The notes under the pieces: model-generated | The model's database searches: none | What the model was told of the DNA's origin: nothing | The model's input: the letters and a program-made list of their open reading frames with translations, nothing else | Shown: in pieces, positions 5,033 to 63,154 of the stretch | Layout: every line of letters starts with the position of its first letter | How positions within the stretch are numbered: position 1 is the stretch's first letter | Source: a virus | Reading direction: 5' to 3' (one strand) | DNA length: 64,000 nucleotides | IMG/VR virus record: IMGVR_UViG_3300045391_002681 | Coordinates: 34,412 to 98,411 of that record | Made by a program: the position numbers and the translations under genes

Positions 5033-6907
5033 TTAGAAGAACAGCAGGCCACGCTCCTCGTAGACGAGCCGGGTTTGTCCGACCGTCCGGGTCGCGGCCC
5101 CGACCGCCATGGCCAGCGCCACGAGCGGGTCGATGCGTTGCGTCGCCTTCCGCTTGGAGAACCAGCGGTTGTCGAATGGGTCGTGTTCGATCGCCGCCGA
5201 CGCGCAGGCCGAGACGAGCACGGGATTTCGCAGTAGCCGGATACGCCGCTCAAGGATCAGCTCCTCGAGCGTGTTCAGCGACCCCGGCATCCACAGTCCT
5301 TCCGGCGGTTCCTCACCGGCCAGCTTCGCCGCCTCGATCTCTGCATCCGTCGGCCTGGCCCGGCGCTTGCCACCCTGGGGATGCTCGACCTCGTTCAAGG
5401 TCAGGCCAAGGGCGTCCAGCTCGTCCGAGAGCTTGCGGTAGGCGTAGCGGTCGTAGGCCACGGACCGGATGATGAAGTCGCTGTCGTCCTCGGCGATCGC
5501 GGAGGCGACGAAGTCCATGCGGACGGTCGGCCCCGGCGTGGCCCTTAGGTGGCCCTCGGCGACCCAGACATCGTATGGCGCCCGGTCGGCAAGCGCCCGC
5601 TCAGCCAAGGTCTGGGCCGGCGTCCAGGCCTCGATCCAGGCGTCATAGGTCGGCTTGAGGATGGTCGTTCCATCCTCGCGCTCGACCTCGATTTCTCCGG
5701 TCTGCACGACGCAGGCCTTCGCCGTGAGATCCTTGGTTCCCGACAGGTCGAGGCCGAGGTCGATTTCCTTGCCGCGGTGCTCCTCCGGATCGAAGTCCGC
5801 AAGAACCGCCTCCAGCGCCTCCCGGCCGATCCAGGCGTCCTCGGCATCGGTCCAGACGCAGAAGTGAAGGCGCATCACGCCGTTCAATTTGCCCGGCATG
5901 GCCTTGGCCTGACTGACGACCCCGGCGAGGTATTCCGGCGTGATCGTCACGCCCAGGAGTGGGTTGGCCTTGGCCCAGCAGCTCGGATCGGTGAGCGGGT
6001 CGTCCCCGTCATCCAGGGAACAAACAAAAGCGAAGGTGCTGTCGTCCTCGATTTCGCGCCGAGCGACTCGGATCGCGTGGTCGTGCTCTTCCCAGCAGAT
6101 CGAGTTCCGGTCTGAGCCGGAGTTGGTGATCATCAGCAGGAGCGGCTGGCGGCGGAACTTGAAGCCGCGCTCCAGCATCTCCATCGTCGAGCGGTCAGGG
6201 TGCTCGTGAACCTCGTCGCAGAGCGCGACGTGGGGCCGCGGGCCGGAGCCGGTCTTGCCCGCCTCTTTCGAGATTGGCCGGAAGAACGAGCCCGACGGAT
6301 GGTGGGCGATGTTGTATTCCCGTCCGGGGCCACCGCTGAACTGAAGCCGCTTGGCCAGGGCCGGCGACTTGCGCACCATCTTGACCGCGTCGCGGAACAG
6401 GATTCCGGCCTGCTCCTTGCGGGCGCCGGCGGCGTAAATCTCCGCGCCGGCCTCGTCGTCCGCTGTCTGGCAGTAGAGACCTATTCCGCCCGCAAGCGGT
6501 GACTTGCCATTGCCCTTGCCCTGCTCGACGTAGGCGCGGCGGAACCGACGGTTGCCGTCCGGCCGCTTCCAGCCGAAGATCGAGCCCAGGATGAACGCCT
6601 GGGACGGATGCAGCCGGAACGGCTGACCCTCAAACTGGCCCTCGCTGAGCTGCAGGACCGTTTCGAAGAACCCGAAGATGCGGTCGGCCGCCTCGGTGTC
6701 GAATCTCAGGCCGCGCTCATGGCCGCGCTCGAGGTCGTCCAGGTGTCGCCTGGCGGCGTCGCGGACATGCGGGCCGGCAACGATACGCCCTTCCGCTACA
6801 TCCAGCGCGTACTGCGTCGTGCGGTCAGTTGAAGAAGCGATCGGCCGGGTCTTCGTCCTCGTCATCCGTCTGGCCGACCTTCGTTTCATCGACCGGCGTC
6901 GCCGCAA
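5033..6907 (-). CDS. terL: Terminase large subunit (start may be about 6865)
   Basis: Walker A GKGNGKS, Walker B LCDEVH, ITNSG, nuclease motifs GLDLS and RIDPLVA. Confidence 0.95.
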   Translation of the reverse strand: MRRRRSMKRRSARRMTRTKTRPIASSTDRTTQYALDVAEGRIVAGPHVRDAARRHLDDLERGHERGLRFDTEAADRIFGFFETVLQLSEGQFEGQPFRLHPSQAFILGSIFGWKRPDGNRRFRRAYVEQGKGNGKSPLAGGIGLYCQTADDEAGAEIYAAGARKEQAGILFRDAVKMVRKSPALAKRLQFSGGPGREYNIAHHPSGSFFRPISKEAGKTGSGPRPHVALCDEVHEHPDRSTMEMLERGFKFRRQPLLLMITNSGSDRNSICWEEHDHAIRVARREIEDDSTFAFVCSLDDGDDPLTDPSCWAKANPLLGVTITPEYLAGVVSQAKAMPGKLNGVMRLHFCVWTDAEDAWIGREALEAVLADFDPEEHRGKEIDLGLDLSGTKDLTAKACVVQTGEIEVEREDGTTILKPTYDAWIEAWTPAQTLAERALADRAPYDVWVAEGHLRATPGPTVRMDFVASAIAEDDSDFIIRSVAYDRYAYRKLSDELDALGLTLNEVEHPQGGKRRARPTDAEIEAAKLAGEEPPEGLWMPGSLNTLEELILERRIRLLRNPVLVSACASAAIEHDPFDNRWFSKRKATQRIDPLVALAMAVGAATRTVGQTRLVYEERGLLFF

Positions 6908-11635: not shown

Positions 11636-12660
11636 GCGCTTTTCCTCTCTGGCTGATCATTGACGACAATGTGCACGCCGACGGCGCGCAACGCTGCGCC
11701 GACTTTGGCCTCCAGCGTTTTGGCCATGAAGGAATTCGGCGCGATTACCTGCCGCCGACCAGCGTCCCACCCGCAGGGGTCGAGATAGCCCAGGGCAACG
11801 CGCTCGCCATCAGCACCTGAGGCGACAACCGCGCGCCTTATCTCAGCAGGTCCAGTGAACTCTGGAACGGCCGCTGCGGCCTGCACGGGAGCGCCTCCGT
11901 AGAAGCCCTCCAATAGCCTGCGCCATGACTTCGGCTGGCAGACGAAGTCGATGTCAGCTTTCCAGCCGCGGTCGTTTTGACCACGGCAGTGATCGCTGCG
12001 TTCGACAGCGGCCAGGGCCTGGCGCCAGGCATCCATTCCGCCTTCCGAGAGGCGGGCATGTATCGCGGCCTTCCGTGACCTGTCGATGGTCCTGGCCTGA
12101 GGGAGGCCAAGCCTAGCAGCCAACGCGTTCCACTCGTCTACGGCGATGCGGACTGCGTCGTTCGGCTTGCCGGCGACAAAGGATGCGTCAGCATCCTTAT
12201 CTTCTGGTGTAGGTGAAGGTCGCGCGACCAACGCGGGTGTTTCACTCTGGGTACCCCGCTGGGTATCCTGGAGAAAACCTGCTGGGTTATTTGGGGGATT
12301 GCCGTCGGGTTTGTTTCCGCTTGGCTCTTGGCTGCGTGGGCGCCCTCCCTTTCGACCGTTGGCGCGGCTTGTCTCGGCCATGCGCGCGGCCTTCTCATAC
12401 TCCTCAAGCACCCGCCCATGCACTAGCCACTCACCCTCGACCGAGAAGAACGGAAGTAGCTTCGGGGCAAGCTTACGCCACTCGGACGTGCTTGCTTTCA
12501 CGATGGCGGCGAGTTCAGACTCGTCATTCGGGAGCCGCCCTCCGCCATCCCAGCAGGCTAGCAGAAGCAGGAAATATCCGCCGTGCTGGTCCCGCGTCAG
12601 ACGCATGGTCTTACGCAGGTAGTCCGCAGGGTAAAACGGCATCCAGGCGTCGGCTTTCAC
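11632..12660 (-). CDS. YdaU/DUF1376-family replication initiator
   Basis: WMPFYPADYLRKTMRLTRDQHGGYFLLL; downstream of dnaB; internal repeats. Confidence 0.85.
   Translation of the reverse strand: MKADAWMPFYPADYLRKTMRLTRDQHGGYFLLLLACWDGGGRLPNDESELAAIVKASTSEWRKLAPKLLPFFSVEGEWLVHGRVLEEYEKAARMAETSRANGRKGGRPRSQEPSGNKPDGNPPNNPAGFLQDTQRGTQSETPALVARPSPTPEDKDADASFVAGKPNDAVRIAVDEWNALAARLGLPQARTIDRSRKAAIHARLSEGGMDAWRQALAAVERSDHCRGQNDRGWKADIDFVCQPKSWRRLLEGFYGGAPVQAAAAVPEFTGPAEIRRAVVASGADGERVALGYLDPCGWDAGRRQVIAPNSFMAKTLEAKVGAALRAVGVHIVVNDQPERKSA
12233..12320. repeat. Iteron-like repeats (putative ori of prophage 1)
   Basis: (C/T)GGGT cores at 12234, 12248, 12260, 12283 and 12306, inside the initiator gene. 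Confidence 0.45.
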
Positions 12661-14102
12661 TCGCGCCCTCCCCGCGGTTCGCTGAAGTCCACGACCTGGC
12701 CGCCGAACCGGTTCTCGCGGGCGAGGTTGCCGAACTTGGTCAGGTCGGAGTTGAAGGCCAGCTTCACGGTGCCGATCGGGCCGTGGCGCTGCTTGCCGAT
12801 GATCACCTCGGCAAGGCCCTGGACCTTGGACATGTCATCGCACCACTTCAGGTGCTCGGCGGTGCCCTCGCGGGGCTCCGACCGGCCGAGGTAGTATTCC
12901 TCCCGGTAGACGAACCACACCATGTCGGCGTCCTGCTCGATCGAGCCGGATTCGCGCAGGTCGCTGAGCTGCGGACGCTTGTCCTCGCGGCTCTCGACCT
13001 GGCGGCTGAGCTGCGACAGGGCCAGGACCGGAACGCCGAGTTCCTTCGCCAGGGCCTTGAGCCCCTGGGTGATCATCGACACCTCTTGCACGCGGTTGTC
13101 GAAGTGGCCGCCCCCGGTGACCAGCTGCAGGTAGTCGACCACCACCAGGCCGAGGCCGAGCTTGCGGTGCAGGCGTCGGGCGCGGGCGCAGAGCTTGGCT
13201 AGCGGAAGGCCGCCGGTGGCGTCGATGTGCAGGGGCGTCCGGCGGATTTCGTCGCGCGCCTCTCGGAGCCGGCCGAACTCCATGGCGTCGATCTGGCCTT
13301 TTCGGGTGCGGTCCGAAGGCACGCCCGAGACTTCGGCTAGGATGCGCCCCGCCAGTTGCTCCTCGGACATCTCCAGCGAGTAGAGGGCGACGTGCTCGCC
13401 TTTCCTAGCGGCGTGGAAGGCAATGTTCGTGGCGAGGGCCGATTTGCCCATTGAGGGCCTGCCGGCCAGGATAATCAGGTCGGACGGGTGTAGGCCCCCC
13501 AGCATAGCGTCCAGGTCGATAAGGCCGGTGGATAGGCCCGCGACCTCCCCTCGCCTGTCATAGGCCGCCGCAGCCATGTCCATGGCCTTATCCAGCGCTT
13601 CGCCGAACTCGACGAAACCGCCGCCGGCCGGGCCGCGCTCGGAGAGGGCGAACAGTTGTTGCTCAGCGGCGCCAAGGTGGTCCCACCCGGGAATGGTGCG
13701 GTCCCGCGCGGACGCAGCGATCTCGCCGGCCGCTGCGATCAACTGTCGGCGCACATAGTGGTCGATGATGGTCTCGGCGTGGGCCTTGGCCATGAACACG
13801 GGCGGGGCATTCTGGATCAGGTCGGCGAGGTAGACCTTGCCGCCGAGCTCGGTCAGTGCGGCATCGTCCTTGAGACGGTCGTGCAGCCAGATCGGGTCAA
13901 CCGCTATGCCGATCGACATCCGCTCGGCGAACACCTGCCAGATGCGGCCATGGATCGGCTCGGCGAAGTGTTTCGGCTCCAGGGCCCCGACTTCGTGGAA
14001 CGCGTCGTTCGTGTAGAGGGCGCAGCCGATCAGCGCCTGCTCGGCCTCCAGGCTGCTCGGCAGTTGGTCCAGCTTGTCGGCGACGAGGGTCAGCAGGCTC
14101 AC
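12657..14102 (-). CDS. dnaB: Replicative DNA helicase
   Basis: AGRPSMGKS, VVDYLQL, LSQLSRQVE, DLRESGSIEQDAD, KQRHGP. Confidence 0.97.
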   Translation of the reverse strand: MSLLTLVADKLDQLPSSLEAEQALIGCALYTNDAFHEVGALEPKHFAEPIHGRIWQVFAERMSIGIAVDPIWLHDRLKDDAALTELGGKVYLADLIQNAPPVFMAKAHAETIIDHYVRRQLIAAAGEIAASARDRTIPGWDHLGAAEQQLFALSERGPAGGGFVEFGEALDKAMDMAAAAYDRRGEVAGLSTGLIDLDAMLGGLHPSDLIILAGRPSMGKSALATNIAFHAARKGEHVALYSLEMSEEQLAGRILAEVSGVPSDRTRKGQIDAMEFGRLREARDEIRRTPLHIDATGGLPLAKLCARARRLHRKLGLGLVVVDYLQLVTGGGHFDNRVQEVSMITQGLKALAKELGVPVLALSQLSRQVESREDKRPQLSDLRESGSIEQDADMVWFVYREEYYLGRSEPREGTAEHLKWCDDMSKVQGLAEVIIGKQRHGPIGTVKLAFNSDLTKFGNLARENRFGGQVVDFSEPRGGRE

Positions 14103-18599: not shown

Positions 18600-19118
18600 T
18601 CAGCCGCCGGTCTTCCGGAGGCGTTTGTCTCGATGAAGCTCTAGAGTTTCGCCCGGCGCTCCAGCGCCCAGACTTGAAGTTTCTGTCCCGACCGGCCCCA
18701 GCGCTCCAGCACCGATCCGAGCCACTCCACTGCCGTCAGGAACGCAAGCACGCAAAGTCGCCAGACGGCGTTCGGCGGCTTCCCATTCGGCTTTTGCACG
18801 CGCGGCCTCCCTGGCTCTGTGGTCGAGATATTCCTCCAGCTTGAGGCCGGTGACGATAGCGGCCACTTCAAGCGAGAGCTCGAAGCCCTCGACAGGGTTC
18901 CGCTTCAGGATGTGGTCAATGGTCGGTTGGGTGATCGAGGCATAGACGAGTCCCCTCGCCTGCCCCTCGGTCAGGTCAAAATAGGCCTGCGCCGCCTTGA
19001 CGATGTTCTGCCCATAGAACTTGCGCCGGGCGATCTGCGCCCACGCGTTCTTGGTGGTCAGGTCCGGTGAAGATTTCCGGATGAATTCGGATGAGATTTT
19101 CAAAGCCGCGGCCCTCAT
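18600..19118 (-). CDS. Conserved phage protein (homologue at 60594-61010), possibly regulatory
   Basis: SSPDLTTKNAWAQ...DLTEGQARGLVYA shared with prophage 2. Confidence 0.7.
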   Translation of the reverse strand: MRAAALKISSEFIRKSSPDLTTKNAWAQIARRKFYGQNIVKAAQAYFDLTEGQARGLVYASITQPTIDHILKRNPVEGFELSLEVAAIVTGLKLEEYLDHRAREAARAKAEWEAAERRLATLRACVPDGSGVARIGAGALGPVGTETSSLGAGAPGETLELHRDKRLRKTGG

Positions 19119-19435
19119 GGTTTGACCCACGAGGTGACCAGCGGAGCGGGAGCGCGGAGGTGGACGACCGGATAGCCGACCCTTGGTTCTGTCAGATGAT
19201 GCAGCACGCGACCGTCGCCGGCGCGTGCACACTGTGGGCTCGGCGAGAGCCCCGGGCCGCTGCGGGTCTGAACCGCATGCGGGAACGGCAAAGCGCTTTG
19301 GCGAGCGCGATGCTGATGGAGAGAATGTTGGACGCCCACGGCCCCAGGAAGGGAAAGACCGTGGGCGCCCACACGTCCGCGCTGGGGCTGGGAGGGCTGG
19401 CTGGCGGGGACGTGAAGGGGTGAGGCCTGGATCAC
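19115..19435 (-). other. Antisense bridge ORF over an inverted gene
   Basis: GTGA overlap with the upstream stop and ATGA overlap with the downstream start; shadow-like composition. Confidence 0.4.
19160..19423 (+). CDS. Inverted hypothetical gene
   Basis: GTG preceded by GGAG-rich sequence; protein-like DDRIADPWFCQMMQHATVAG... Confidence 0.45.
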   Translation: MDDRIADPWFCQMMQHATVAGACTLWARREPRAAAGLNRMRERQSALASAMLMERMLDAHGPRKGKTVGAHTSALGLGGLAGGDVKG

Positions 19436-19791
19436 GCGATCGCCCCTTCAAGCAGGTCTACCAAGTCGGCCTGGGGGAGCTTCAGGCGCCGCGTCCGAGC
19501 GGCGTTTTTCGCGTGATGCGGGGCGTCGTAGACGAGATGGCAGCGCTGGCACCAAGCCTTGAGGTTCGGCCTATTGCCCGGCTCGCCGCAGTTCTCCGGT
19601 GTGTGGTCGAGATGGGCGACCGTCAGCACCACCTTGGACCCGGTGACCGGATGGGGCGCCGCATTCTCGGCTCGGCAATCAGGAAAGCGGGGCGATCCCT
19701 CGCAGCGCCACCCGGCGCGCTCGCGCACTTCCAGGCTGATAGCCTTCCAGTCCTTCGGGTAGCGCGCCTTCTCTTCCGGACGGATAGGCAT
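19432..19791 (-). CDS. HNH-like Zn-binding protein
   Basis: MPIRPEEKARYPKDW...VVLTVAHLDH...NLKAWCQRCH. Confidence 0.75.
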   Translation of the reverse strand: MPIRPEEKARYPKDWKAISLEVRERAGWRCEGSPRFPDCRAENAAPHPVTGSKVVLTVAHLDHTPENCGEPGNRPNLKAWCQRCHLVYDAPHHAKNAARTRRLKLPQADLVDLLEGAIA

Positions 19792-19794
19792 GAC

Positions 19795-19947
19795 CTAAAA
19801 CGCCCTTCTCTTGCGCAGGGCGCCGGTGCGTTGGCGGGTCCGTTCCTCATGGCGGGTTTGGAACCATTCATCCGCCGTCCGGCAGGCCCAGGTCAGGGAC
19901 GGCCAGAGGATGGCGAGGAACAGGAGGGCGTAGAGGATGCGGGACAT
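19795..19947 (-). CDS. Small membrane protein
   Basis: MSRILYALLFLAILWPSLTWAC..., TGATG-coupled. Confidence 0.45.
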   Translation of the reverse strand: MSRILYALLFLAILWPSLTWACRTADEWFQTRHEERTRQRTGALRKRRAF

Positions 19948-20447
19948 CAGGCGGCGCTCCGTTCGGAGTGCGCGAGAACGAATTGCTCAACGATGGCGCG
20001 GCGCCGGGCGGTCTCGTCAGGCGTGCAGCGATAAGTGTGGGACGCCTTTTCGACCTCAGGCGGGATCGGAATGCCGCCCTTGCGCAACCGCCCCAGTCGT
20101 CGGCACATCAGGCCGGCCCTCGTTGCGGCGGCGGGCATCCGGCGTCCTCGCCAGTGTGCGCGAGGTTCGGGCAGACCATCCGCGCAGAACGTCCCGTTCC
20201 GCGCCGTCTCGATGATCGCGAGAAGGGCGCCGGTCGCGTGAAACCATTCGTGATGGCTGCGATCGGCGGCGAAGCGGTGATGAAGGCGCCGCTCAAGCGT
20301 ATGGTTGCCGGGGATCGTGGCCACAATCTCCAGCGGGACCGGAGACCACGTCGCGTAGGTTTTCAGACGGTCGTGCGGCCAGCGCGAGAAACCGATCTTG
20401 ATCGGTCCGAGCTGCCCGACAGGCCGAATGAAATAGATCGCGCTCAT
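19947..20447 (-). CDS. GIY-YIG superfamily (T5orf172-like) protein
   Basis: IYFIR...IKIGFS...ERRLHHRF...HEWF. Confidence 0.8.
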   Translation of the reverse strand: MSAIYFIRPVGQLGPIKIGFSRWPHDRLKTYATWSPVPLEIVATIPGNHTLERRLHHRFAADRSHHEWFHATGALLAIIETARNGTFCADGLPEPRAHWRGRRMPAAATRAGLMCRRLGRLRKGGIPIPPEVEKASHTYRCTPDETARRRAIVEQFVLAHSERSAA

Positions 20448-20674
20448 GCGGCGGCCCCGGGGTGCGGCTCGCGGCCAGCGTCGCGCTCGGTTTCCAGAGC
20501 CCGCAGGTCCGCCATGGCGCGCTCGAGGCGCTTGACGCCGATGTCGACCTTGCCGACCGCCAGCTTTTCAAGGCGATCCGTGTTGGCCAGCAGGCGCTTT
20601 GACAGCCAGACCCGGCTGACCTCGTGGGTCGCGCAGAAGGCGTCACAGCGCTGGATGAACTCGGCAATCGTCAT
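20444..20674 (-). CDS. cro: Cro-like repressor
   Basis: Small helical protein divergent from cI, behind operator palindromes. Confidence 0.7.
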   Translation of the reverse strand: MTIAEFIQRCDAFCATHEVSRVWLSKRLLANTDRLEKLAVGKVDIGVKRLERAMADLRALETERDAGREPHPGAAA

Positions 20675-20687
20675 GGTTCACTATACT

Positions 20688-20728
20688 GGGGTATGTTTAC
20701 CCCGCCGTCAATGGGGTACAGTTACCCC
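20688..20728. promoter_or_regulatory. Operator pair GGGGTA-N4-TACCCC and leftward promoter
   Basis: Palindromes at 20688-20703 and 20713-20728; TTGACG on the minus strand at 20711-20706. Confidence 0.85.
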
Positions 20729-20752
20729 TGCGCGATCAGCCGGGGGCAAACC

Positions 20753-21472
20753 ATGATCCCCGCCATGGCTGGGATAGACCGCGAGGCGCTCCGCGCCCTC
20801 ATTCAGGCGAAGGGAAAGACGCCGCGGCAGGTCTCCTTGGAGATCACGGACGGGCGCAATGGCTATCTCGTGCGCGAGATACTGAGCGGGAAGAGCCAGA
20901 ACCCGAGGCGGGACACGCTCGCCAAGATCGCTAAGAGCCTGGCGGTCAGCGTCGATCAGATCGCGTCTGGAGCCGATGATGAGGAGGGCTTCGCCGGCGG
21001 CGACCCAGAGCAAGCGCGGTCTCGTTTCCTCCCCGTGCGCTACCAGGTGGCGGCCGGGGTCTGGTTTGAGAACGAGATCGAAGAGCCGCCCGTCGAGGGG
21101 ATTTTCCCCGTCGCCCCAGATCCCCGATATGCCGCCATCCCCCAATGGCTGGAGGTCGTGCGCGGGAACTCAGCCAACCTAAAGATTCCTGACGGCCACT
21201 TCGCCCACGTCATCGACGCGGAAGCGATGGGTTACGTCCCCCAGGATAAGCACTGGGTCGTCCTTGAACGCACCAGGGTTGGCGGCCGTTTGCGCGAGCG
21301 GACTATCAAGCAGGTGGAAGTGACCGACGACGGCCAAGTGCTGTTCTGGGGGCGGTCGACGGAAGAGCGGTGGAACAAGCCCATCACCCTGAACGGCGGG
21401 ACCGAGGGTGAAGAGGATGTCGAGGTACGCGTGGCCGGCTTGGTGCGCGGCGCTTACGACCCCGATTTCTGA
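20753..21472 (+). CDS. cI: CI repressor (HTH plus S24 peptidase)
   Basis: N-terminal HTH, VAAG cleavage site, RGNS serine, TIK lysine. Confidence 0.88.
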   Translation: MIPAMAGIDREALRALIQAKGKTPRQVSLEITDGRNGYLVREILSGKSQNPRRDTLAKIAKSLAVSVDQIASGADDEEGFAGGDPEQARSRFLPVRYQVAAGVWFENEIEEPPVEGIFPVAPDPRYAAIPQWLEVVRGNSANLKIPDGHFAHVIDAEAMGYVPQDKHWVVLERTRVGGRLRERTIKQVEVTDDGQVLFWGRSTEERWNKPITLNGGTEGEEDVEVRVAGLVRGAYDPDF

Positions 21473-30050: not shown

Positions 30051-30259
30051 GCGCTCCGATCACCCGGGCCCTGATCGAGCGAGCTATCACGGCCATGGAA
30101 TCCACCGGCCATCCCGTGAAAGGCGTTCGCCTGTCCCCAGATGGGTGCGTTAGCCTATTGACCGAGACGCCCGCTGGCGCCCTAGCGTCCAATGACGACC
30201 AGGGAGATTGGCTGAGTCTTGCCGGCGAGACGGACGTACCTCGTGCCCAAGGGGCTTAA
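30047..30259 (+). CDS. Putative excisionase
   Basis: 70-aa ORF overlapping the integrase start. Confidence 0.5.
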   Translation: MSAPITRALIERAITAMESTGHPVKGVRLSPDGCVSLLTETPAGALASNDDQGDWLSLAGETDVPRAQGA

Positions 30260-31370
30260 ACCCGTCAAGCGCAAGCTGGCGAACGGCGATGTGCGGACCT
30301 ATTGGTATCACCGCGCCACCGGAAAGGCCCTGACGCACGATCCCGAGACCGCTGAGGGCCTTCTAGAGGTCGCCGCGCTGGACAGGCGCAGCGGCGTCAC
30401 ATCGGCCGCCAGCGGCCATCCTGGCGGCTCCTACGCGGAATTGTGGGCTGAGTACCGCAAGAGCCCCGAGTGGAAGAACCTGCGGCCCCGCACCCGATCC
30501 GATTACCAGGCCGTCCGTGACTGGCTGGGCGACAAGGCCGCCGAGCGCATGATGCTGAAGCAGCTCACGTCAGGCGACCTATTCAAGCTCCGCGACAAGG
30601 CGTTCAAGGCCAAAGGGCGCCGGTTCGCCAACTACGTCGTCCAGGTCATGCGCCTCACGCTGAAGTGGGGCAAGAAGCGCGACATGCTGGCGGTCAACCC
30701 GGCCGAGGAAGTCGATCAGATCCGAAAGCCGACCGGAGAGGCTAAGGTCAACCGGGCCTGGACCATGGCCGAGGTCGAAGCCTTCGCCAACGCCGCGCCG
30801 CCGCACCTGATCCTGCCGTTCATGCTCGGCCTCTTCGCGGGGATGCGCCAGGGCGACGCCCTGCACGTCACCTGGAGCGCCTATGACGGCCTCGCCCTAC
30901 GGTGGATCGCCAGCAAGAACGGCGAGCCCTGCATGGCCCCGGTGAGCGGCGATTTCAAACGCCTGCTGGACGCGGCCAAGGAGCGCCGGGGTAAAGCCGT
31001 CCAGATCGCCGTCACGTCCACCGGCACGCCCTGGACACAGAGCGGGTTCCGCGCCTCGTTCTTCAAGCTGCTGCGGACGCTCCGCGCCGCCGGCGCCGTG
31101 CAGCCGGGCTGCACCTTCCACGGCCTGCGCCACACCATCGGCTCAACAGCGCGTGATGACGGCCAGAGCGAATCGCGGGTGGCCGCCGCCATCGGCGACC
31201 GGAGCCCCGCCATGGCCCAAATTTACGGCCGCGACGCCGACAAGGCCGAGGCGCAGACCACGGTTCTGGAGGGCGTGCAGAAACGCTTTGCGAACATCGA
31301 TTGGAAAATATCGGCAGCTGATTGGAAAACGGCTCGCTCCCCGAAGGGTGCGAAATCGCCGAAAACCTGA
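30219..31370 (+). CDS. int: Tyrosine integrase
   Basis: GMRQGD (R), SKNG (K), FHGLRH, QIYG (Y); adjacent to the tRNA att core. Confidence 0.93.
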   Translation: MPARRTYLVPKGLKPVKRKLANGDVRTYWYHRATGKALTHDPETAEGLLEVAALDRRSGVTSAASGHPGGSYAELWAEYRKSPEWKNLRPRTRSDYQAVRDWLGDKAAERMMLKQLTSGDLFKLRDKAFKAKGRRFANYVVQVMRLTLKWGKKRDMLAVNPAEEVDQIRKPTGEAKVNRAWTMAEVEAFANAAPPHLILPFMLGLFAGMRQGDALHVTWSAYDGLALRWIASKNGEPCMAPVSGDFKRLLDAAKERRGKAVQIAVTSTGTPWTQSGFRASFFKLLRTLRAAGAVQPGCTFHGLRHTIGSTARDDGQSESRVAAAIGDRSPAMAQIYGRDADKAEAQTTVLEGVQKRFANIDWKISAADWKTARSPKGAKSPKT

Positions 31371-34126: not shown

Positions 34127-34511
34127 TGGCCGCCCCCCCATGCTGGATGTGAAAGGCCTTCGAACAGCGGTAGCCTTCACCGTGGACGGTTTCGACTACG
34201 CCCCGGCCGAGCTTCTTGCGGAGATTGCTCAGGTGAACCTCGACGCTCTTGGAGCTGCGGTGCTCGGCGGCATGGTCGCGGCGCAGGATGGAGTCTTCCA
34301 GCACCCCTCGCGTGACGACTCGTGGATAGGCGCGCAGCAGCGTTTCCATCAGCGCGCCTTGGGTCGGCGTGAGGCTCCAGCCCCAATCCGGCCTTGTGCG
34401 CGGCATGTCGGCGTCGAGGACTTTGAGCCGGGCTTCTAGCGCAGTGGCATACCGACGCTCGGCGGCAAGACGATGTTCCAAGGCCTCGATGTATGCGGCT
34501 TCGGGAGTCAC
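34113..34511 (-). CDS. Orphan OmpR/PhoB-type winged-helix protein with no receiver domain
   Basis: GTG coupled to the holin stop; LTPTQGALMETLL...VVTRGVL...SVEVHLSNLRKKLG...VETVHGEGY. Confidence 0.82.
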   Translation of the reverse strand: MTPEAAYIEALEHRLAAERRYATALEARLKVLDADMPRTRPDWGWSLTPTQGALMETLLRAYPRVVTRGVLEDSILRRDHAAEHRSSKSVEVHLSNLRKKLGRGVVETVHGEGYRCSKAFHIQHGGAANEPH

Positions 34512-44458: not shown

Positions 44459-45292
44459 ATGGATATCGTTACTCAAATCTTACATGGAGCGGCCGCTGCC
44501 GTCGGACTCTATGCCCTGTCCTTCATGGCCCTTACGTGCTTCGAATACGCCTTTCCGCACCCGAAGCGCCCACAACCCTCATTGGCGTCCAGGCTCCGCG
44601 GCTTCCGCTGGTGGCTGATCTACAGCGTCGTCGTCTCTGCCGTCGGTGTGGCGACGGGTGCGCTATGGGCTCACCTGCACGTTCACCCGCTGCTGAGCAG
44701 CTTCACGCCGCCCGGACTGCCGCGATGGCTTGCGACAATTGTTGCCTTCATCGCGGCCATCTTCGCGGGCGATTTCTTCTACTATTGGTGTCACCGTTTC
44801 CAGCACCGGTTCCTTTGGCGCTGGCACGCCACCCACCACGCCGTGCGAGAACTGAGCGGGGCGATGGCCTATCACCATCCGACCGAGCAATTGATGCGGT
44901 TGGCGCTCTACATTATCCCGGTCGCCCTGGTGCTGCCTTACGACGGCCTCGCCCTCCCCATCGTCGGCGGGGTCCTGGCCCTGCAAGGCCACTACCTACA
45001 TTCCCCGATGCGGCTCAACTTCGGCCAGCTCTGGGTGGTCTTCCAGGACAACCGCTTTCATCGCATCCATCACTCGATCCATCCGAAGCACTACGACAAG
45101 AACTTCGGGGTGATCGTGCCGCTTTGGGATGTGCTGTTCGGGACGGCCTATTGGCCCAGGCCCGATGAGTGGCCAGAGACGGGCGTGGAAGGCATGCCCC
45201 AGCCCGAGGCGCTGGACGAATACCTGTTGGGACCGATCAGATACAATCCGGTCGCGCGGCGCGAAACCGGGCCAGCCCCCGCGCGCCGCTAG
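44459..45292 (+). CDS. Sterol desaturase / fatty acid hydroxylase family protein (moron)
   Basis: His boxes HRFQH, HATHH and HRIHH; KNFG...WDVLFGT; multiple TM segments. Confidence 0.92.
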   Translation: MDIVTQILHGAAAAVGLYALSFMALTCFEYAFPHPKRPQPSLASRLRGFRWWLIYSVVVSAVGVATGALWAHLHVHPLLSSFTPPGLPRWLATIVAFIAAIFAGDFFYYWCHRFQHRFLWRWHATHHAVRELSGAMAYHHPTEQLMRLALYIIPVALVLPYDGLALPIVGGVLALQGHYLHSPMRLNFGQLWVVFQDNRFHRIHHSIHPKHYDKNFGVIVPLWDVLFGTAYWPRPDEWPETGVEGMPQPEALDEYLLGPIRYNPVARRETGPAPARR

Positions 45293-51910: not shown

Positions 51911-52177
51911 TTAATCGTCGGGCTGCATGACCTCGAAGGAGAGCGCGCAGCCGGCTCGGGCGATCACCGCCGCAGCCGCGCCTTGGGAGCGGTCGCGCAT
52001 CGTCCAGCCGCGCGATGTGGCCTGATGGGCGCCGCCGAGCACATAGACGATGGCCTCGGGCTCTTCGCCGCTCTGGGCGACGTAGTCGTCATACGCGCCC
52101 CCGATCTGTGCGAGGAATTCCGCCTTGCGATCACGCTGGATCGGTCCCGAGGACAGGGAGACGACGTTGTCGCTCAC
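51911..52177 (-). CDS. Hypothetical protein
   Basis: GTGA-coupled to the portal stop. Confidence 0.55.
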   Translation of the reverse strand: MSDNVVSLSSGPIQRDRKAEFLAQIGGAYDDYVAQSGEEPEAIVYVLGGAHQATSRGWTMRDRSQGAAAAVIARAGCALSFEVMQPDD

Positions 52178-54306
52178 CCGGCGCCCTGCGCGTTGCCCGT
52201 GAAGAACTTCGCCACCTTCTGCAGCATGGACACGCGGTGCGCCTGGTCCTTCTGCTGGGCTTCCAGATCGGCCTTCGCGGCGTCGCTGGCGGTCTGCGCC
52301 ACCGCCACGTGAGCATCAACCTGTTTCGCGTGCGCCTCGGCGAGCGCTTTGACGGTTCCGGCCTTCGCCTGTTCGGTTTGGGCCTCGGCCTTCTTCGTCT
52401 GGGCCATTTCCTTCTCTACGGTCGCCTGTAGGACTTGGGCGTGAGGGTCAGGCTGCTGCTGTTGCTGCGCCTGCGCCTCCTGCATCGCCTCTTTTTCCTG
52501 TTCGGTCGGCTTGACGATGCCCTGTTGCACCAGGCGCCCGCGATACCAGTCCTTCAGGTCGCCGATGCCCTCGCCGTCCATGTTGAGGAAGGCGACGCCC
52601 ATCGCCGCAGCCGCGCCCTGCGGATCAAATGGAGCCATGGCTTCGGCCGACGCCAGCAGCGTCTTGACCGTCTTGTCCCGGCGCGTGGTGGTGGCCTCGG
52701 TCACGTCGGAGATGACGTTGAATTTCATCCCCGCGAAGTCGTTGGCGACATAATAGCCGCCCTTTTGTGTCGTGGTCGGCTGCTGGAGGACCGCGCTCCC
52801 CTGCTGGCCTTCCTCGTCCATCGTCGGGACCTTGCGGCCTTCCTCGATGTAGACCGCCTTGGCCATGGACAGGTAGATCTCGCCGCACCGCTGCATCGAC
52901 TGGCGCATGTTGTCCATGTAGGTGAACGACTTGGCGTCGGTGCGCGTGGCGGCAATGTCCATCGCCTCGGCCGAGACGTTGGATTTCGTCTCGTCGGAAT
53001 TGTCCTGGTTGGTGGTCAGCTGATCGATGTCGTTGGCGGTGATCTGGATCAGCGCGGCGAGGACGGGCGGGAGTTGCGGCGCGTTGAGCGTCGTCACCGC
53101 CTGGACCGGGATCGGCTGGCCGGTCGTCGGGTCGATGCGGTCGTTTATCAGGCGGTACGGCGAGCGGTTGATGTTCGCCTCGGCCCACGACTGTTCGTGC
53201 CCCGCCACCTGTTCCGGCGTGAACACCGGCGTCTCGATGGGCGAGAGCGAGGCGGTTTCCGTGAGCTTGGAAATCTGGGCGTTGTAGATGCGCTGCGGGT
53301 CCTTCGCGAGGCGCACATGGCCCCGTACCCGCTCCATGTTGTCGATGAACCAACGCTTGCCGTAGACCGGGACGATGGGGATTTGATCCCCAGCAATCAC
53401 CTGCATCGGCGCGATGATGCCCGAGGCGCTGAACGTGTGCTTTTCCACGATGCAGCGCTTGACGCGCTTGCGCCCGCTGATTTTCCAGCCCTGGACCTGT
53501 AGGTCTTTCAACTCGCCCGGTTCGAGGTCTTTGCTCCACTCCTTGCGCACGTCGCCGGTCATGGAATGGGTGAGCGTCACGCGCTCCTGCGTCACGTCCA
53601 CCTTGCGGTAATATTCCGCGATCCTGACGACGCTCGGCGTGTACCAATCGTAGTAGGTCTTGAGGATGTCCTGCGGCCAGGACGCCGGATCGTCGTTGTA
53701 GGTCGCCTCGTAGTCCTCGGGCGACATGGCCGTGACCACGAACGCGAACTTGGCGTCGGACTTGTCGTACAGCCGCGCGTCCATGTCCCAGAACACGGAC
53801 TGATCGGCGTCGGGCACGATCTCGAAGCTGATGCGTTGGGTGTCGTCGTCAGGGTCGTATTCGTCGCTGTAGACGTTGCACAGCCGCCAGGCGCCCATAC
53901 CGCCCTGTACGGCTTCCTCAAAGGCGCAATCGAACGCCTGTTGCCCCTTGGAGGCGTACACATCGGCCAGGAACAGGCCATTGAGGGTTTCCGCCGCTTC
54001 CTCGTCGGCCGGCGAGTCATCGACCGGCCGGAAATCCACGGTCATGCGGTTGGCGCGATAGTCGGCGATGATCTTCTCGACGCCCTGCGCGGTCTTGTTC
54101 ACCTCCACCATCAGGGAGTTGGCGAACTGCTGCGCCCAATCGCCTTCCCACTGCGCCCCGGCTATCGAGACGAAGCGGCGATCTTGCAGGCATTGCGCCC
54201 GCTCTTCCTGCTGCGCCATGCAGATGGCGTGGAACTGCGCCAGCGCCTTTTCGTGGAGGTCGTCGGGCAAACCCTCGGTAGCGATTTCGCCGCTCGGCTC
54301 GGCCAT
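52174..54306 (-). CDS. Portal protein, P22 gp1 family
   Basis: GAQWEG, EVNK, GGMGAWRL, IPIVPVYGKRWFIDNMERVRGHVRLAKDPQR. Confidence 0.93.
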   Translation of the reverse strand: MAEPSGEIATEGLPDDLHEKALAQFHAICMAQQEERAQCLQDRRFVSIAGAQWEGDWAQQFANSLMVEVNKTAQGVEKIIADYRANRMTVDFRPVDDSPADEEAAETLNGLFLADVYASKGQQAFDCAFEEAVQGGMGAWRLCNVYSDEYDPDDDTQRISFEIVPDADQSVFWDMDARLYDKSDAKFAFVVTAMSPEDYEATYNDDPASWPQDILKTYYDWYTPSVVRIAEYYRKVDVTQERVTLTHSMTGDVRKEWSKDLEPGELKDLQVQGWKISGRKRVKRCIVEKHTFSASGIIAPMQVIAGDQIPIVPVYGKRWFIDNMERVRGHVRLAKDPQRIYNAQISKLTETASLSPIETPVFTPEQVAGHEQSWAEANINRSPYRLINDRIDPTTGQPIPVQAVTTLNAPQLPPVLAALIQITANDIDQLTTNQDNSDETKSNVSAEAMDIAATRTDAKSFTYMDNMRQSMQRCGEIYLSMAKAVYIEEGRKVPTMDEEGQQGSAVLQQPTTTQKGGYYVANDFAGMKFNVISDVTEATTTRRDKTVKTLLASAEAMAPFDPQGAAAAMGVAFLNMDGEGIGDLKDWYRGRLVQQGIVKPTEQEKEAMQEAQAQQQQQPDPHAQVLQATVEKEMAQTKKAEAQTEQAKAGTVKALAEAHAKQVDAHVAVAQTASDAAKADLEAQQKDQAHRVSMLQKVAKFFTGNAQGAG

Positions 54307-60593: not shown

Positions 60594-61010
60594 TTACTCA
60601 GCGCCTCCCCGAGCAAAACGGCGCTGCTCAGCAACGCGAGCAGACATAGCCGCGAGACGCTGTTCGGCGGCCTCCCACTCGATGCGTTCACGCGCGGCCT
60701 CCCTGGCTTTGTGAGCGATGAAGTCTTCTAGTTTGATCCCGGTGACGATAGCCGCGATTTCCAACGAGAGCCCAAAGCCTTCGAAGGGATCGCGCCTCAA
60801 TACGGCGTCGATGGTGTTCTGTGTGGCCTGGGCATAGACGAGTCCCCTCGCCTGCCCCTCCGTCAGGTCCCATTCGGCCTGACAGGCCTTCACCAGGTTG
60901 CGGCCATAGAACCGCCGTCTGACGAGCTGCGCCCATGCGTTCTTGGTGGTCAGGTCCGGTGAAGAATACCGGATGGATTTGGATGAGATTTCCGCCACAG
61001 CCGTCCTCAT
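60594..61010 (-). CDS. Homologue of 18600-19118
   Basis: Shared motifs and 30-bp DNA identity. Confidence 0.7.
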   Translation of the reverse strand: MRTAVAEISSKSIRYSSPDLTTKNAWAQLVRRRFYGRNLVKACQAEWDLTEGQARGLVYAQATQNTIDAVLRRDPFEGFGLSLEIAAIVTGIKLEDFIAHKAREAARERIEWEAAEQRLAAMSARVAEQRRFARGGAE

Positions 61011-61048
61011 TGTTGCCCTCGTTGAGCAACCGACGACGGAGACGAGCC

Positions 61049-61231
61049 GTGGAACGCAGACTTGATGTTGTCGGGCAGTTGGAAAGCAGCGCTGGCCTTA
61101 TGGCCTTCGCCGCGACGGTGACGAGTGAAGACGTGCGGCGCGAGATGGAGACTCGATCCGCTCGGATATTCTGGCAAACGATCACACAGGCGGTCGGCAA
61201 ACCGCTTGTGGATCGGCCGGAATGGGAGTGA
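61049..61231 (+). CDS. Inverted hypothetical gene (spanned by bridge ORF 61007-61246)
   Basis: GGAG upstream of GTG; protein-like sequence. Confidence 0.45.
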   Translation: MERRLDVVGQLESSAGLMAFAATVTSEDVRREMETRSARIFWQTITQAVGKPLVDRPEWE

Positions 61232-61242
61232 GGCCGGGAGGG

Positions 61243-61965
61243 TCATGCGGCCTCGCGGTGTTGCAGCGCGGCCTTAACGGCGCGGGCGATAGCGCGACCC
61301 ATTGGAAGCGGAACGCCGTTGCCGACCACGCGATACTTGCCCTCGTTGGTCAGGGGCGCATCGGCGAGGTAGTCGGGCGGCAGGCCCTGGAGTTCGCAGA
61401 AGCGCGACCACGGCCGCTTAGGATTGTAGACGGCAGTTCCTTCGCGGGATCGAGTAATGCGACCGGCGCGGCCTTCGGATGCCAAGCAAGTGGTCTCAAT
61501 ATTGGCGTGCTCAAGCGGCGAGTGCTGGACGTGGAGCGCGGCGCCCCAAGCGGTGCCAAATTGAAAGGCGCGGCGCCGAGCCTGTTCCTCTCCCAGCCAG
61601 CGGTTGTCGAGCACAATCCGCCGCGTGGTGTAGCCCGGTACATTGGCGTCGGGGACCGCGACAGCGTTCTCCATGATCCACCAAAGCGGCCTGGCCTCGG
61701 CCACGCACCTGGTGAAGTCAGGCGTCATGTCGAGCGCAATTTCCGCGCCGCGTGCCCGGTTGATGTGGACATAGGAGGAATGGGCTTGGCACGGTGGGCC
61801 ACCGATCACGCCGTCAAAACGACCAGCCGGCGGATGAAACGATCGAATGTCACCGCCCCAAAGCGGATCGGGGCCGCGCACGACGCAAAACCCTTCTTCC
61901 TCGAAGGCTTTGTCAAGCAGCCCAATGCCCGGGAACAGCGAGAGAACCAGACCGTTCGCCCCCAT
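61243..61965 (-). CDS. Compact DNA cytosine-C5 methyltransferase
   Basis: LFPGIG, GGPPCQ, MENA, RRRAF, ELQGLP, GNGVP. Confidence 0.88.
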   Translation of the reverse strand: MGANGLVLSLFPGIGLLDKAFEEEGFCVVRGPDPLWGGDIRSFHPPAGRFDGVIGGPPCQAHSSYVHINRARGAEIALDMTPDFTRCVAEARPLWWIMENAVAVPDANVPGYTTRRIVLDNRWLGEEQARRRAFQFGTAWGAALHVQHSPLEHANIETTCLASEGRAGRITRSREGTAVYNPKRPWSRFCELQGLPPDYLADAPLTNEGKYRVVGNGVPLPMGRAIARAVKAALQHREAA

Positions 61966-62205
61966 CTCTCAGCGCCCCATCGCAGCGTGGAACACGCCGA
62001 CGATCAGCGGGAACCAAGCGGGCGCGGTCGCGATGACGGTGATGATCCCCCGCACCTCGTTGAGCAGCAGAAGCGTCACACCCGCTCGGGCGATGAAGCG
62101 CCGGGGTTTCAGTAGAGCGAAGAGAAGGGCGGCAATGCTCATGTCGTTCGCTCGACATAAACTTGCGAAGGCTGTGGATGAGCAGCGTTAACCCGCAAAT
62201 TAAGT

Positions 62206-62529
62206 ATGCCCGTACATGGGCTGTTCATCTTTGGGTTGCGACGCTGGGCCGTGCCAGAGCCAGCGCCCAATGTTCCCGAGTTGCCCGAGCCGTCAGCCGA
62301 GTTGATCCTGCTGCTGGCGCTGGTGCAGGCGCATATGCGCTCGCTGAGCCGCAAGGAACGCTCCCGGTTCATGGCCGACGTGTCCAATGCGCTGGGCTTG
62401 CAGGAATCGGCGTACAACATCCTGCGCTTCCGGCCACGCGCCGAGGATCGGGCGGTGTACCGGGCGATGAAGCAGGCCGCCGCGTGGTGGCGGCAGTCGG
62501 TGTCCGTGGTGTTGAGGCTGGAGGAGTAG
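62206..62529 (+). CDS. Inverted hypothetical gene (spanned by bridge ORF 62139-62534)
   Basis: Helical protein-like composition. Confidence 0.6.
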   Translation: MPVHGLFIFGLRRWAVPEPAPNVPELPEPSAELILLLALVQAHMRSLSRKERSRFMADVSNALGLQESAYNILRFRPRAEDRAVYRAMKQAAAWWRQSVSVVLRLEE

Positions 62530-62530
62530 G

Positions 62531-62734
62531 TCATTCGGGCCGCGCCTTCTCGGCGGCGACCCTGGCCACCAGATCGCGGCGCTTGGTCAGGTCTTCCAGC
62601 CTAGCGGCCATCGTCAGCGAGACCTTCCGGCGCCCGCTTTTCAGGTCCGCGATATGACCATCCGAAACCTTGAGCGCGCGGGAGAGGTCGGCGCTGGTCA
62701 GGTCGAGACCGGATATGATCTGGTTGAAGTCCAT
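62531..62734 (-). CDS. cro: Cro-like HTH
   Basis: LTSADLSRALKVSDGHIADLKSGRR. Confidence 0.78.
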   Translation of the reverse strand: MDFNQIISGLDLTSADLSRALKVSDGHIADLKSGRRKVSLTMAARLEDLTKRRDLVARVAAEKARPE

Positions 62735-62759: not shown

Positions 62760-62827
62760 AAACGCAAGCGCCGTTTCCTCGCACCTTCGGGAAGGACGGA
62801 GGCGCGGCATCGTCGCAAAATGTGCGG

Positions 62828-63154
62828 ATGGGAAAGAAGCCGAGCCGAGAGGCCGCCAACAACATCAGGGCATGGCGCGACTATCGCCGGATGAGTCAGG
62901 CGAAGCTCGCGGAGTTGTGCGACACCAAGGACAACGTCATCAGCAACCTGGAGTCCGGCGAGCGCCAGCTAACCGAGAAGTGGCTCGTGCGGCTCGCCAA
63001 GGCGCTGGAGACGACGCCTGGCTATCTGCTCGACCACGATCCGCACGATCTTGATACCGAGCTGATCCGCGCCGCGCAGGACGCCGCCAAGGGCGGCCAC
63101 CGCGACCAGGTGCTCACCATCCTCAAGACCTTCAAGACGGGGACTAACGGCTAA
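62828..63154 (+). CDS. XRE-family repressor without peptidase domain
   Basis: IRAWRDYRRMSQAKLAELCDT...ISNLESGERQLT. Confidence 0.85.
   Translation: MGKKPSREAANNIRAWRDYRRMSQAKLAELCDTKDNVISNLESGERQLTEKWLVRLAKALETTPGYLLDHDPHDLDTELIRAAQDAAKGGHRDQVLTILKTFKTGTNG

Follow-up and report, generated by a model that had tools for sequence, protein, structure and literature searches.

Antisense reading frames coupled at both ends across backward genes in the early operons of two neighbouring prophages: candidate pass-through frames

The window analysed here, a whole stretch of 64,000 nucleotides (nt), is the final 64 kb of the 98-kb IMG/VR record IMGVR_UViG_3300045391_002681 (positions 34,412 to 98,411), which derives from soil-metagenome DNA. 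It holds two neighbouring prophages, A and B, with a G + C content (GC) of ~65%. In each prophage, the early operon lies on the minus strand, and its first gene occupies the cro position, divergent from a repressor-like gene. Within these operons, three minus-strand open reading frames (ORFs), called bridges 1 to 3 below, begin on the stop codon of the gene upstream and end on the start codon of the gene downstream, and each spans entirely a plus-strand ORF that runs backward with respect to the operon.

Bridge 1 (19115..19435, minus strand, 106 amino acids (aa)) is the codon-aligned antisense frame of backward gene 1. Its GTG (19435-19433) overlaps the TGA (19434-19432) of an HNH endonuclease gene (19432..19791, minus strand; phrog_1571, E 1.2e-28) in the sequence GTGA, and its TGA (19117-19115) overlaps the ATG (19118-19116) of the next gene (18600..19118, minus strand, 172 aa) in the sequence ATGA; this next gene carries no Shine–Dalgarno (SD)-like motif. 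Bridge 2 (61007..61246, minus strand, 79 aa) is in the same codon-aligned register and has ATGA at both ends, one on the stop of a C5 DNA methyltransferase gene (61243..61965, minus strand; PF00145, E 1.6e-13) and the other on the start of a gene at 60594..61010 (minus strand), which has GAGGG upstream. Bridge 3 (62139..62534, minus strand, 131 aa) likewise has ATGA at both ends, on the stop of a cro-like helix-turn-helix (HTH) gene (62531..62734, minus strand; HTH_3, E 3e-4, which is under the curated cut-off) and on the start of a hydrophobic 57-aa gene (61969..62142, minus strand) without an SD-like motif. According to the coordinates, position 1 of the codons in bridges 1 and 2 lies on position 3 of the plus-strand codons, whereas the third codon positions of bridge 3 coincide with those of its plus-strand gene. 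The distance from the plus-strand stop to the bridge start is 12, 15 and 5 nt in cases 1 to 3, and in case 3 the stop of the cro-like gene is 1 nt from that of the backward gene. Slots 1 and 2 are syntenic, as each lies directly upstream of a homologous gene (18600-19118 and 60594-61010, 66% identical). An earlier note on this DNA had already described the overlapping ends, the full coverage with plus-strand stops within about 15 nt of the bridge starts and the common slot of the first two bridges, and all of these hold. The homologous pair, one gene per prophage, belongs to no known family and has no relative in any collection searched; both genes open with ATG-AGG.

The starts of the bridges carry the signals expected of a coupled gene. 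An SD-like 4-mer is found between -17 and -5 in all three, compared with 15% inside genes and 37% at gene ends; in bridge 1 it is AAGG upstream of the GTG, and in bridge 2 it is GAGG, 4 nt ahead of the ATG. The junctions are indistinguishable from the ordinary coupled ones of the operon, e.g., GAGG-CCGC-ATGA, which occurs after the methylase and after the GIY-YIG gene of a related locus (L095, described below). A shared E-A-A-stop ending was also observed in non-homologous genes (methylase, GIY-YIG and cro), where GAGGCCGC(A/C)TGA supplies an SD motif followed by the overlapping start (window 61243-61254, L095 3066-3077 and L088 1878-1889). It is possible that the coupling junction moves together with the module that follows it.

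Two of the three plus-strand ORFs, 19160-19423 and 62206-62529, are established as real, conserved genes lying backward in the cro-side operons, while the status of 61049-61231 is uncertain; the earlier description of all three as protein-like is upheld by homologues for genes 1 and 3. Backward gene 1 (19160..19423, plus strand, 87 aa) encodes a predicted helical-hairpin protein and begins with a GTG that has a GGAG-type motif upstream; the start was placed at this codon because the alignments of homologues begin at query residue 23–30. A full phmmer search gave 39 homologues of 62–111 aa (best E 3.5e-15) with the family core W-R-EP-AA-GL-R. The AlphaFold2 model made with the family alignment is a two-helix hairpin with a predicted local distance difference test score (pLDDT) of 81 and 51 residues at 90 or above, for which a Foldseek comparison with the PDB returned generic helical hairpins only (E > 3). 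Backward gene 3 (62206..62529, plus strand, 107 aa) lies upstream of the repressor gene in the same orientation, and its two homologues (58% and 54% identity) differ from it by conservative substitutions; the AlphaFold2 model, of moderate quality (pLDDT 67), predicts three helices. All 39 homologues of gene 1 and both homologues of gene 3 come from Logan, ENA or JGI assemblies. Homology between genes 1 and 3 was considered and rejected (hhalign probability 0.3%). At the start codon of gene 3 (62208-62221, plus strand), a 5-bp GC hairpin precedes a T-rich run; this element could affect translation of the gene or act as an attenuator.

Candidate backward gene 2 (61049..61231, plus strand) would encode 60 aa from its GTG, the ORF being open from 60935. 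It bears a weak likeness to the gene 3 family (hmmsearch E 9.5e-4 with 14 sequences; hhalign P 0.002 at 14% probability; Smith–Waterman (SW) z 3.6). The backward ORFs of prophage B, 60935-61231 and 62206-62529, may be distant paralogues, although their registers to the bridges differ. Neither strand of case 2 was called by the gene caller of the source, while gene 3 was called.

None of the six ORFs (three bridges and three plus-strand ORFs) had a significant match in Pfam, PHROGs, PADLOC or NCBIfam, and the matches in Rfam were all sub-threshold. Gene 1, gene 3, both alignments and the anchor gene had no match among viral contigs; there was also none in the collection scans of genome contigs and metagenome contigs, in a tblastn search of GenBank phages and plasmids with gene 1, gene 3 and the anchor, or among 85 viral records searched with the gene 3 profile. 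A scan covering promoters of the sigma-70 type only found no sigma-70 consensus promoter upstream of the backward genes.

The composition of the bridges mirrors that of the genes beneath them. The GC at codon positions 1/2/3 is.79/.57/.69 in bridge 1 against.68/.57/.82 in gene 1, and.48/.63/.77 in bridge 3 against.67/.45/.86 in gene 3, so that plus-strand ORFs 1 and 3 follow the gene pattern of the record, with a GC at third positions (GC3) of 0.82 and 0.86, and the bridges are its reflection; case 2 is ambiguous. The bridge peptides are of low complexity, rich in P/S/H/R or S/T/R/C, and mutually dissimilar (z -1.2 to 0.7), which bears out the shadow-like composition and lack of mutual similarity reported before. 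With a three-periodic Markov model trained on 54 long genes of the record, the coding scores per 300 nt are -14, -17.5 and -10.5 for bridges 1 to 3, all below every verified early gene (+2 to +22), and +4.7, -4 and -14 for plus-strand ORFs 3, 1 and 2, respectively; in case 2, the codon model slightly favours the minus frame (log-likelihood ratio 5.1 over 183 nt). Conservation of the bridge frame was compared for case 1 only. The plus frames of three relatives of gene 1 align to the window with SW z of 10, 3 and 9.5, against 1.4, -0.9 and 0.4 for the codon-aligned minus frame, and the third positions of the plus frame are the least conserved. A search with bridge 1, the only bridge searched, found no homologue. 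Because of the mirrored composition and because bridge 1 has neither a homologue nor a conserved frame, the bridges are not ordinary protein genes.

Four proviral loci (L088, L092, L094 and L095) were found by a profile search of phage records fetched via the HNH gene and by a scan with the repressor-like protein, while 80 HNH loci and 2 methylase loci were without the slot. A member of the gene 1 family lies backward in L088, L094 and L095, the L094 member being diverged (independent E-value 0.01). It is flanked on one side by cro, or by a GIY-YIG gene that was inserted behind cro, and on the other by the next gene of the minus strand. It has the same orientation as the repressor gene, and its start is back-to-back with the start of the next gene. 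In L095, a single frame of 116–118 codons begins with an ATG on the stop of the GIY-YIG gene (ATGATG) and ends in an ATGA on the next gene. In L094, an open frame of 126 codons extends from a GTG located 2 nt past the cro stop (CTGA) to an ATGA. The frame of L088 is cut by two in-frame stops, and three ORFs (24, 41 and 79 codons) follow one another across the interval, with the joints TGATG, ATGA, a 4-nt gap and ATGA. In L092, the ORFs coupled to cro and to the downstream HTH gene are in different frames, with a 149-nt gap. Coupling is permitted by the phase from stop to start in the three cases of the window and in three of the relatives (L095, L094 and L088), whereas the phase in L092 does not permit it. 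Only some of the genes downstream at these loci show a detectable relationship to one another.

The record contains eight backward islands, of which three are doubly coupled and none singly coupled. Elsewhere, a real backward HTH gene located after an HNH gene in locus L070 (70% GC) is crossed by a frame that begins at TTGA and ends 4 nt short of the next start. In the cultured Acetobacter phage phiAX1 (L097 1202-1411), whose repressor-like gene is related, the annotated backward gene PhiAX1_270 of the early operon is crossed by a frame of 96 codons, which starts 9 nt past the upstream stop and runs 66 nt beyond the next start (P(open) 0.14). A census of backward genes in 74 GC-rich loci, made with a crude gene caller, yielded too few tight islands for a test of the phase rule. 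A further backward gene was observed in the tail region of prophage B (window 44459-45292, plus strand, 277 aa, GC 0.61); it lies 18 nt from the upstream stop, has no bridge and has stops in all three operon-strand frames.

To what extent such frames are expected by chance was estimated from the record itself. Inside its real genes, the codon-aligned antisense frame is open in 42–60% of segments of 80–131 codons (49–60% at 80–107 codons), and the frame in which third positions coincide is open in 3–13%. The frame of downstream gene 1 itself is open over 283 codons (window 18600-19451), extending through the entire backward gene 1 as far as a TTG at 19451. Over this stretch, as across case 2, two of the three minus frames are therefore free of stops, and openness is weak as evidence at such GC. 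The stops of the record form A/G/T-TGA in 36% of instances, and an A follows ~45–49% of its starts. About 1% of backward genes should by chance have a doubly coupled open frame, an estimate that multiplies the motif frequencies by 1/3 for the frame match and by ~0.19, the mean chance of openness over the three registers. The double coupling, not the openness, is the signal, as the earlier note had argued in calling open antisense frames common at high GC. With the phases and end motifs fixed, the probability of a single strict bridge is 0.47, 0.47 and 0.036 in cases 1 to 3 and 0.51 in L095; for case 3, an open frame would arise by chance with P 0.096 if the gene alone is considered and with P 0.036 if the flanks are included. 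Under a relaxed rule that admits relays of ORFs, P is 0.067 for L094 and 0.126 for L088, both obtained with shuffled flanks, which ignore shared descent.

Besides the features described above, prophage A has a large terminase (5033-6907), DnaB (12657-14102) and an integrase (30219-31370), and prophage B has a P22-type portal (52174-54306). The repressor-like gene of prophage A (20711..21472, plus strand) is a relative of the S24 family by sequence identity: it is 35.6% identical to an annotated S24 peptidase of a Methylobacterium plasmid, 29% identical to a gene of Acetobacter phage phiAX1 and 42–58% identical to the genes in the repressor position of L088 to L095. Because of the Methylobacterium and phiAX1 matches, the hosts of both prophages are probably Alphaproteobacteria. 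The repressor-like gene of prophage B (62822..63154, plus strand) is an HTH gene (HTH_3, E 7e-9). In prophage A, the minus-strand operon starts with the cro-position gene (20444-20674), from which gene 1 is kept apart by ~1 kb comprising a gene of the GIY-YIG type (T5orf172/MUG113; 19947..20447, minus strand; PF13455, E 3.9e-11), a 50-aa ORF (orf50) and the HNH gene. These three (window 19432-20447) look like successive homing-endonuclease insertions, because the backward gene adjoins cro in L088 and L094 and L095 has the GIY-YIG gene only. The sole sequencing run in which the window was found is a soil-metagenome DNA run, with no RNA run among the holders; its contigs were fragmentary and identical to the window, which left zero variants for scoring.

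The reading we prefer, although we place it slightly short of an even chance, is that the bridges are pass-through frames, selected to keep ribosomes on the lytic mRNA. A ribosome ending the upstream cistron would re-initiate at the start overlapping its stop, aided by the SD-like motif inside the last codons of the upstream gene. It would then translate the antisense of the backward gene and terminate at the TGA overlapping the ATG of the next gene. Translation would in this way cover the C-rich antisense RNA, so that Rho would be kept from loading, and ribosomes would be handed to the downstream starts, two of which (18600-19118 and 61969-62142) are without an SD-like motif. Untranslated RNA that is rich in C and poor in G is a good substrate for Rho. 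The operon-strand RNA over the bridges has a C/G ratio of 1.2–1.5, against 0.9–1.14 in sense genes, and in cases 1 and 3 its most skewed 78-nt segments (C 0.50, G 0.21) immediately follow the upstream stop. No convincing site was found in a search for an intrinsic terminator between the convergent gene ends. We infer from these features that the bridges are translated, that their translation serves polarity relief or coupling and that the plus-strand genes are expressed in the lysogen; the last point is an analogy drawn only from their orientation toward the repressor gene. Put more generally, and with a little less confidence again, temperate phages might follow a design rule by which a backward gene is allowed in an early operon only when a pass-through frame crosses it on the operon strand. 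Taken together with this rule, and equally tentatively, such a frame would be selected for being translated and not for its product, relaying ribosomes and shielding the antisense RNA from Rho.

The explanation that competes most closely, which we consider possible but the less probable of the two, is that the bridges are a neutral by-product. Backward cassettes would have been inserted into junctions that were already ATGA-coupled, with GC3-rich codon usage keeping the antisense frames open; the old SD motif and start would be left stranded at the left end and an ATG regenerated at the right, so that ribosomes could enter without any selection for it. Antisense frames are indeed open by default, in 49–60% of segments of real genes, gene ends of the record often carry an SD motif plus A/G-TGA anyway (36–37%), and once phase and end motifs are given, cases 1 and 2 and L095 are unremarkable (P 0.47, 0.47 and 0.51). 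A long reverse ORF arising from GC3 bias alone is, moreover, a published case (PMC13262655). A number of observations weigh against selected pass-through frames in the same way. At this GC3, the openness of the bridge frames is uninformative: synonymous-codon resampling gives P(open) of 0.56, 0.66 and 0.096 for cases 1 to 3 and has no power at GC3 near 0.8, and the value for case 3 depends mostly on two codons, each before a tyrosine. If insertion into a coupled ATGA junction is granted, only the frame match (1/3) and openness remain to be explained, which reduces the joint surprise to ~1e-2 to 1e-4. No bridge crosses the five remaining backward genes of the record, which sit in larger gaps and are taken to be separate transcription units. 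Among the relatives, the operon-strand frame across the gene 1 family is open at three of four loci, where ~0.5 is expected for each, a result close to the neutral prediction, and the bridge frames decay in L088, where the frame is broken, and in L092. L088, L094 and L095 visibly share homologous sequence just past the stop of cro or of the GIY-YIG gene, so these are not independent loci and their junction sequence is inherited. The earlier note had made its interpretation depend on homologues of the plus-strand genes keeping open, coupled antisense frames. The refuting outcome was not obtained, as L095 is doubly coupled, L094 open and L088 tiled, but strict double coupling is present in only one of the four relatives, the cro stop of L094 and L088 being CTGA and L092 having no continuous chain. 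What the neutral explanation accounts for less well is that the right frame is needed every time (1/3 each), together with an open frame of coinciding third positions in case 3 (0.036). No extended duplication is visible around the inserts, none of the eight islands is singly coupled, and in L088 a relay of small ORFs spans the break (P 0.13 by simulation).

Two further explanations assign a protein to the minus strand. That the minus-strand ORFs are ordinary operon genes and the plus-strand ORFs their shadows is very improbable overall; only in case 2 is it possible at all, and there it is unlikely without being far-fetched. Tight double coupling and SD-like motifs are typical of real operon genes, and in case 2, where neither strand was gene-called, the codon model leans slightly to the minus strand. 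In case 1, however, it is the plus frame that yields a 39-member protein family and a confidently modelled fold, while the minus frame is unconserved; in case 3, the plus-strand gene has homologues with conservative substitutions and a canonical GC1/GC2/GC3 pattern (GC at the three codon positions), while its bridge has GC1 below GC2. All bridges score under every verified early gene, and bridge 1 is without a homologue. True dual coding, with functional proteins from both strands as has been claimed for two genes next to ner in Pseudomonas phage Fc02, gene 10 and olg1, is in our estimation just as improbable. The Fc02 genes have the same geometry next to a cro/ner gene, and the ORFs, when plasmid-borne, both expressed protein and excluded phages (PMC9936078); the bridges also have proper initiation signals. 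Nevertheless, the bridge frame is unconserved between relatives while the plus frame is conserved, the bridge peptides are of low complexity with a composition that mirrors the plus-strand gene, and there is no family match in Pfam, PHROGs, NCBIfam or PADLOC. The 'true bidirectional coding' proposed in the earlier note is overstated, as nothing suggests that the bridge peptides matter; as a whole, that interpretation is partly supported. An in-place inversion of a doubly coupled gene was also tried as an origin of the layout and rejected: it would give the codon-aligned register automatically, but it fails on the new start and stop of the plus-strand genes and on the register of case 3.

If the pass-through frames are selected, they would be reading frames whose sole function is to be translated, and they would explain how lysogeny-side or accessory genes can stand backward in lytic operons without polarity. 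In that event, annotators should cease naming such frames hypothetical proteins and cease dropping the small real gene beneath, and engineers of phage genomes would have to respect the frames when inserting cargo. If they are unselected, the bridges are a warning that doubly coupled ORFs in GC-rich phage DNA can be relics. In a limited literature search, pass-through frames that span backward genes were not described for any DNA phage. The coupling itself has an ordinary anatomy, and narnaviruses already provide a reverse frame that serves translation and not a product.

The mechanism proposed here has a parallel in the immI region of phages P1 and P7, where translation of icd permits transcription of ant, a translation-dependent escape from Rho polarity. 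By analogy, it would be the translation of the upstream frame rather than its product that keeps the transcript alive. The immI frame, however, is a sense gene regulated by an antisense RNA, whereas a bridge is antisense to a backward gene.

The closest layout is that of the beetrevirus Fc02, for which strand-specific RNA-seq showed that lysogens transcribe olg1/olg2 and, beyond them, the repressor from a distal promoter, pC1, with ner and gene 10 on the other strand; gene 10, the first after ner on the lytic strand, overlaps olg1 (PMC9936078). As in Fc02, the genome is GC-rich, and a small gene upstream of the repressor, in the same orientation, is overlapped in antisense by the first lytic ORF after cro/ner. 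The gene order of Fc02, with cro antisense in between, is matched exactly by case 3, L088 and L094, whereas case 1 has three inserted genes between the backward gene and the repressor gene. Furthermore, both Fc02 products are reported to act in superinfection exclusion, while the product of bridge 1 is unconserved.

Ambigrammatic narnaviruses are reported to persist only if their reverse ORF is translated, although its product is apparently not a functional protein (PMC8316113, PMC8155312). The codon-aligned reverse frame that is open over a real gene is common to these viruses and to case 1, and to case 2 if its plus-strand ORF is a gene. Narnaviruses, however, are RNA viruses of eukaryotes in which the avoidance of stops is clearly beyond codon bias, whereas here it is indistinguishable from GC3 bias, and a 'pseudoambigrammatic' virus shows that GC3 bias alone mimics a stop-free reverse frame (PMC13262655). 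In the anatomy of their junctions, including the SD-like motif, the bridges resemble ordinary ATGA/GTGA-coupled cistrons, from which they differ in their shadow composition, the lack of a conserved product and the presence of a real gene on the other strand. They share with a chance GC3 shadow ORF the fixed register to a real gene on the opposite strand and the mirrored composition, but, unlike such an ORF, they are coupled to their neighbours at both ends in all three cases.

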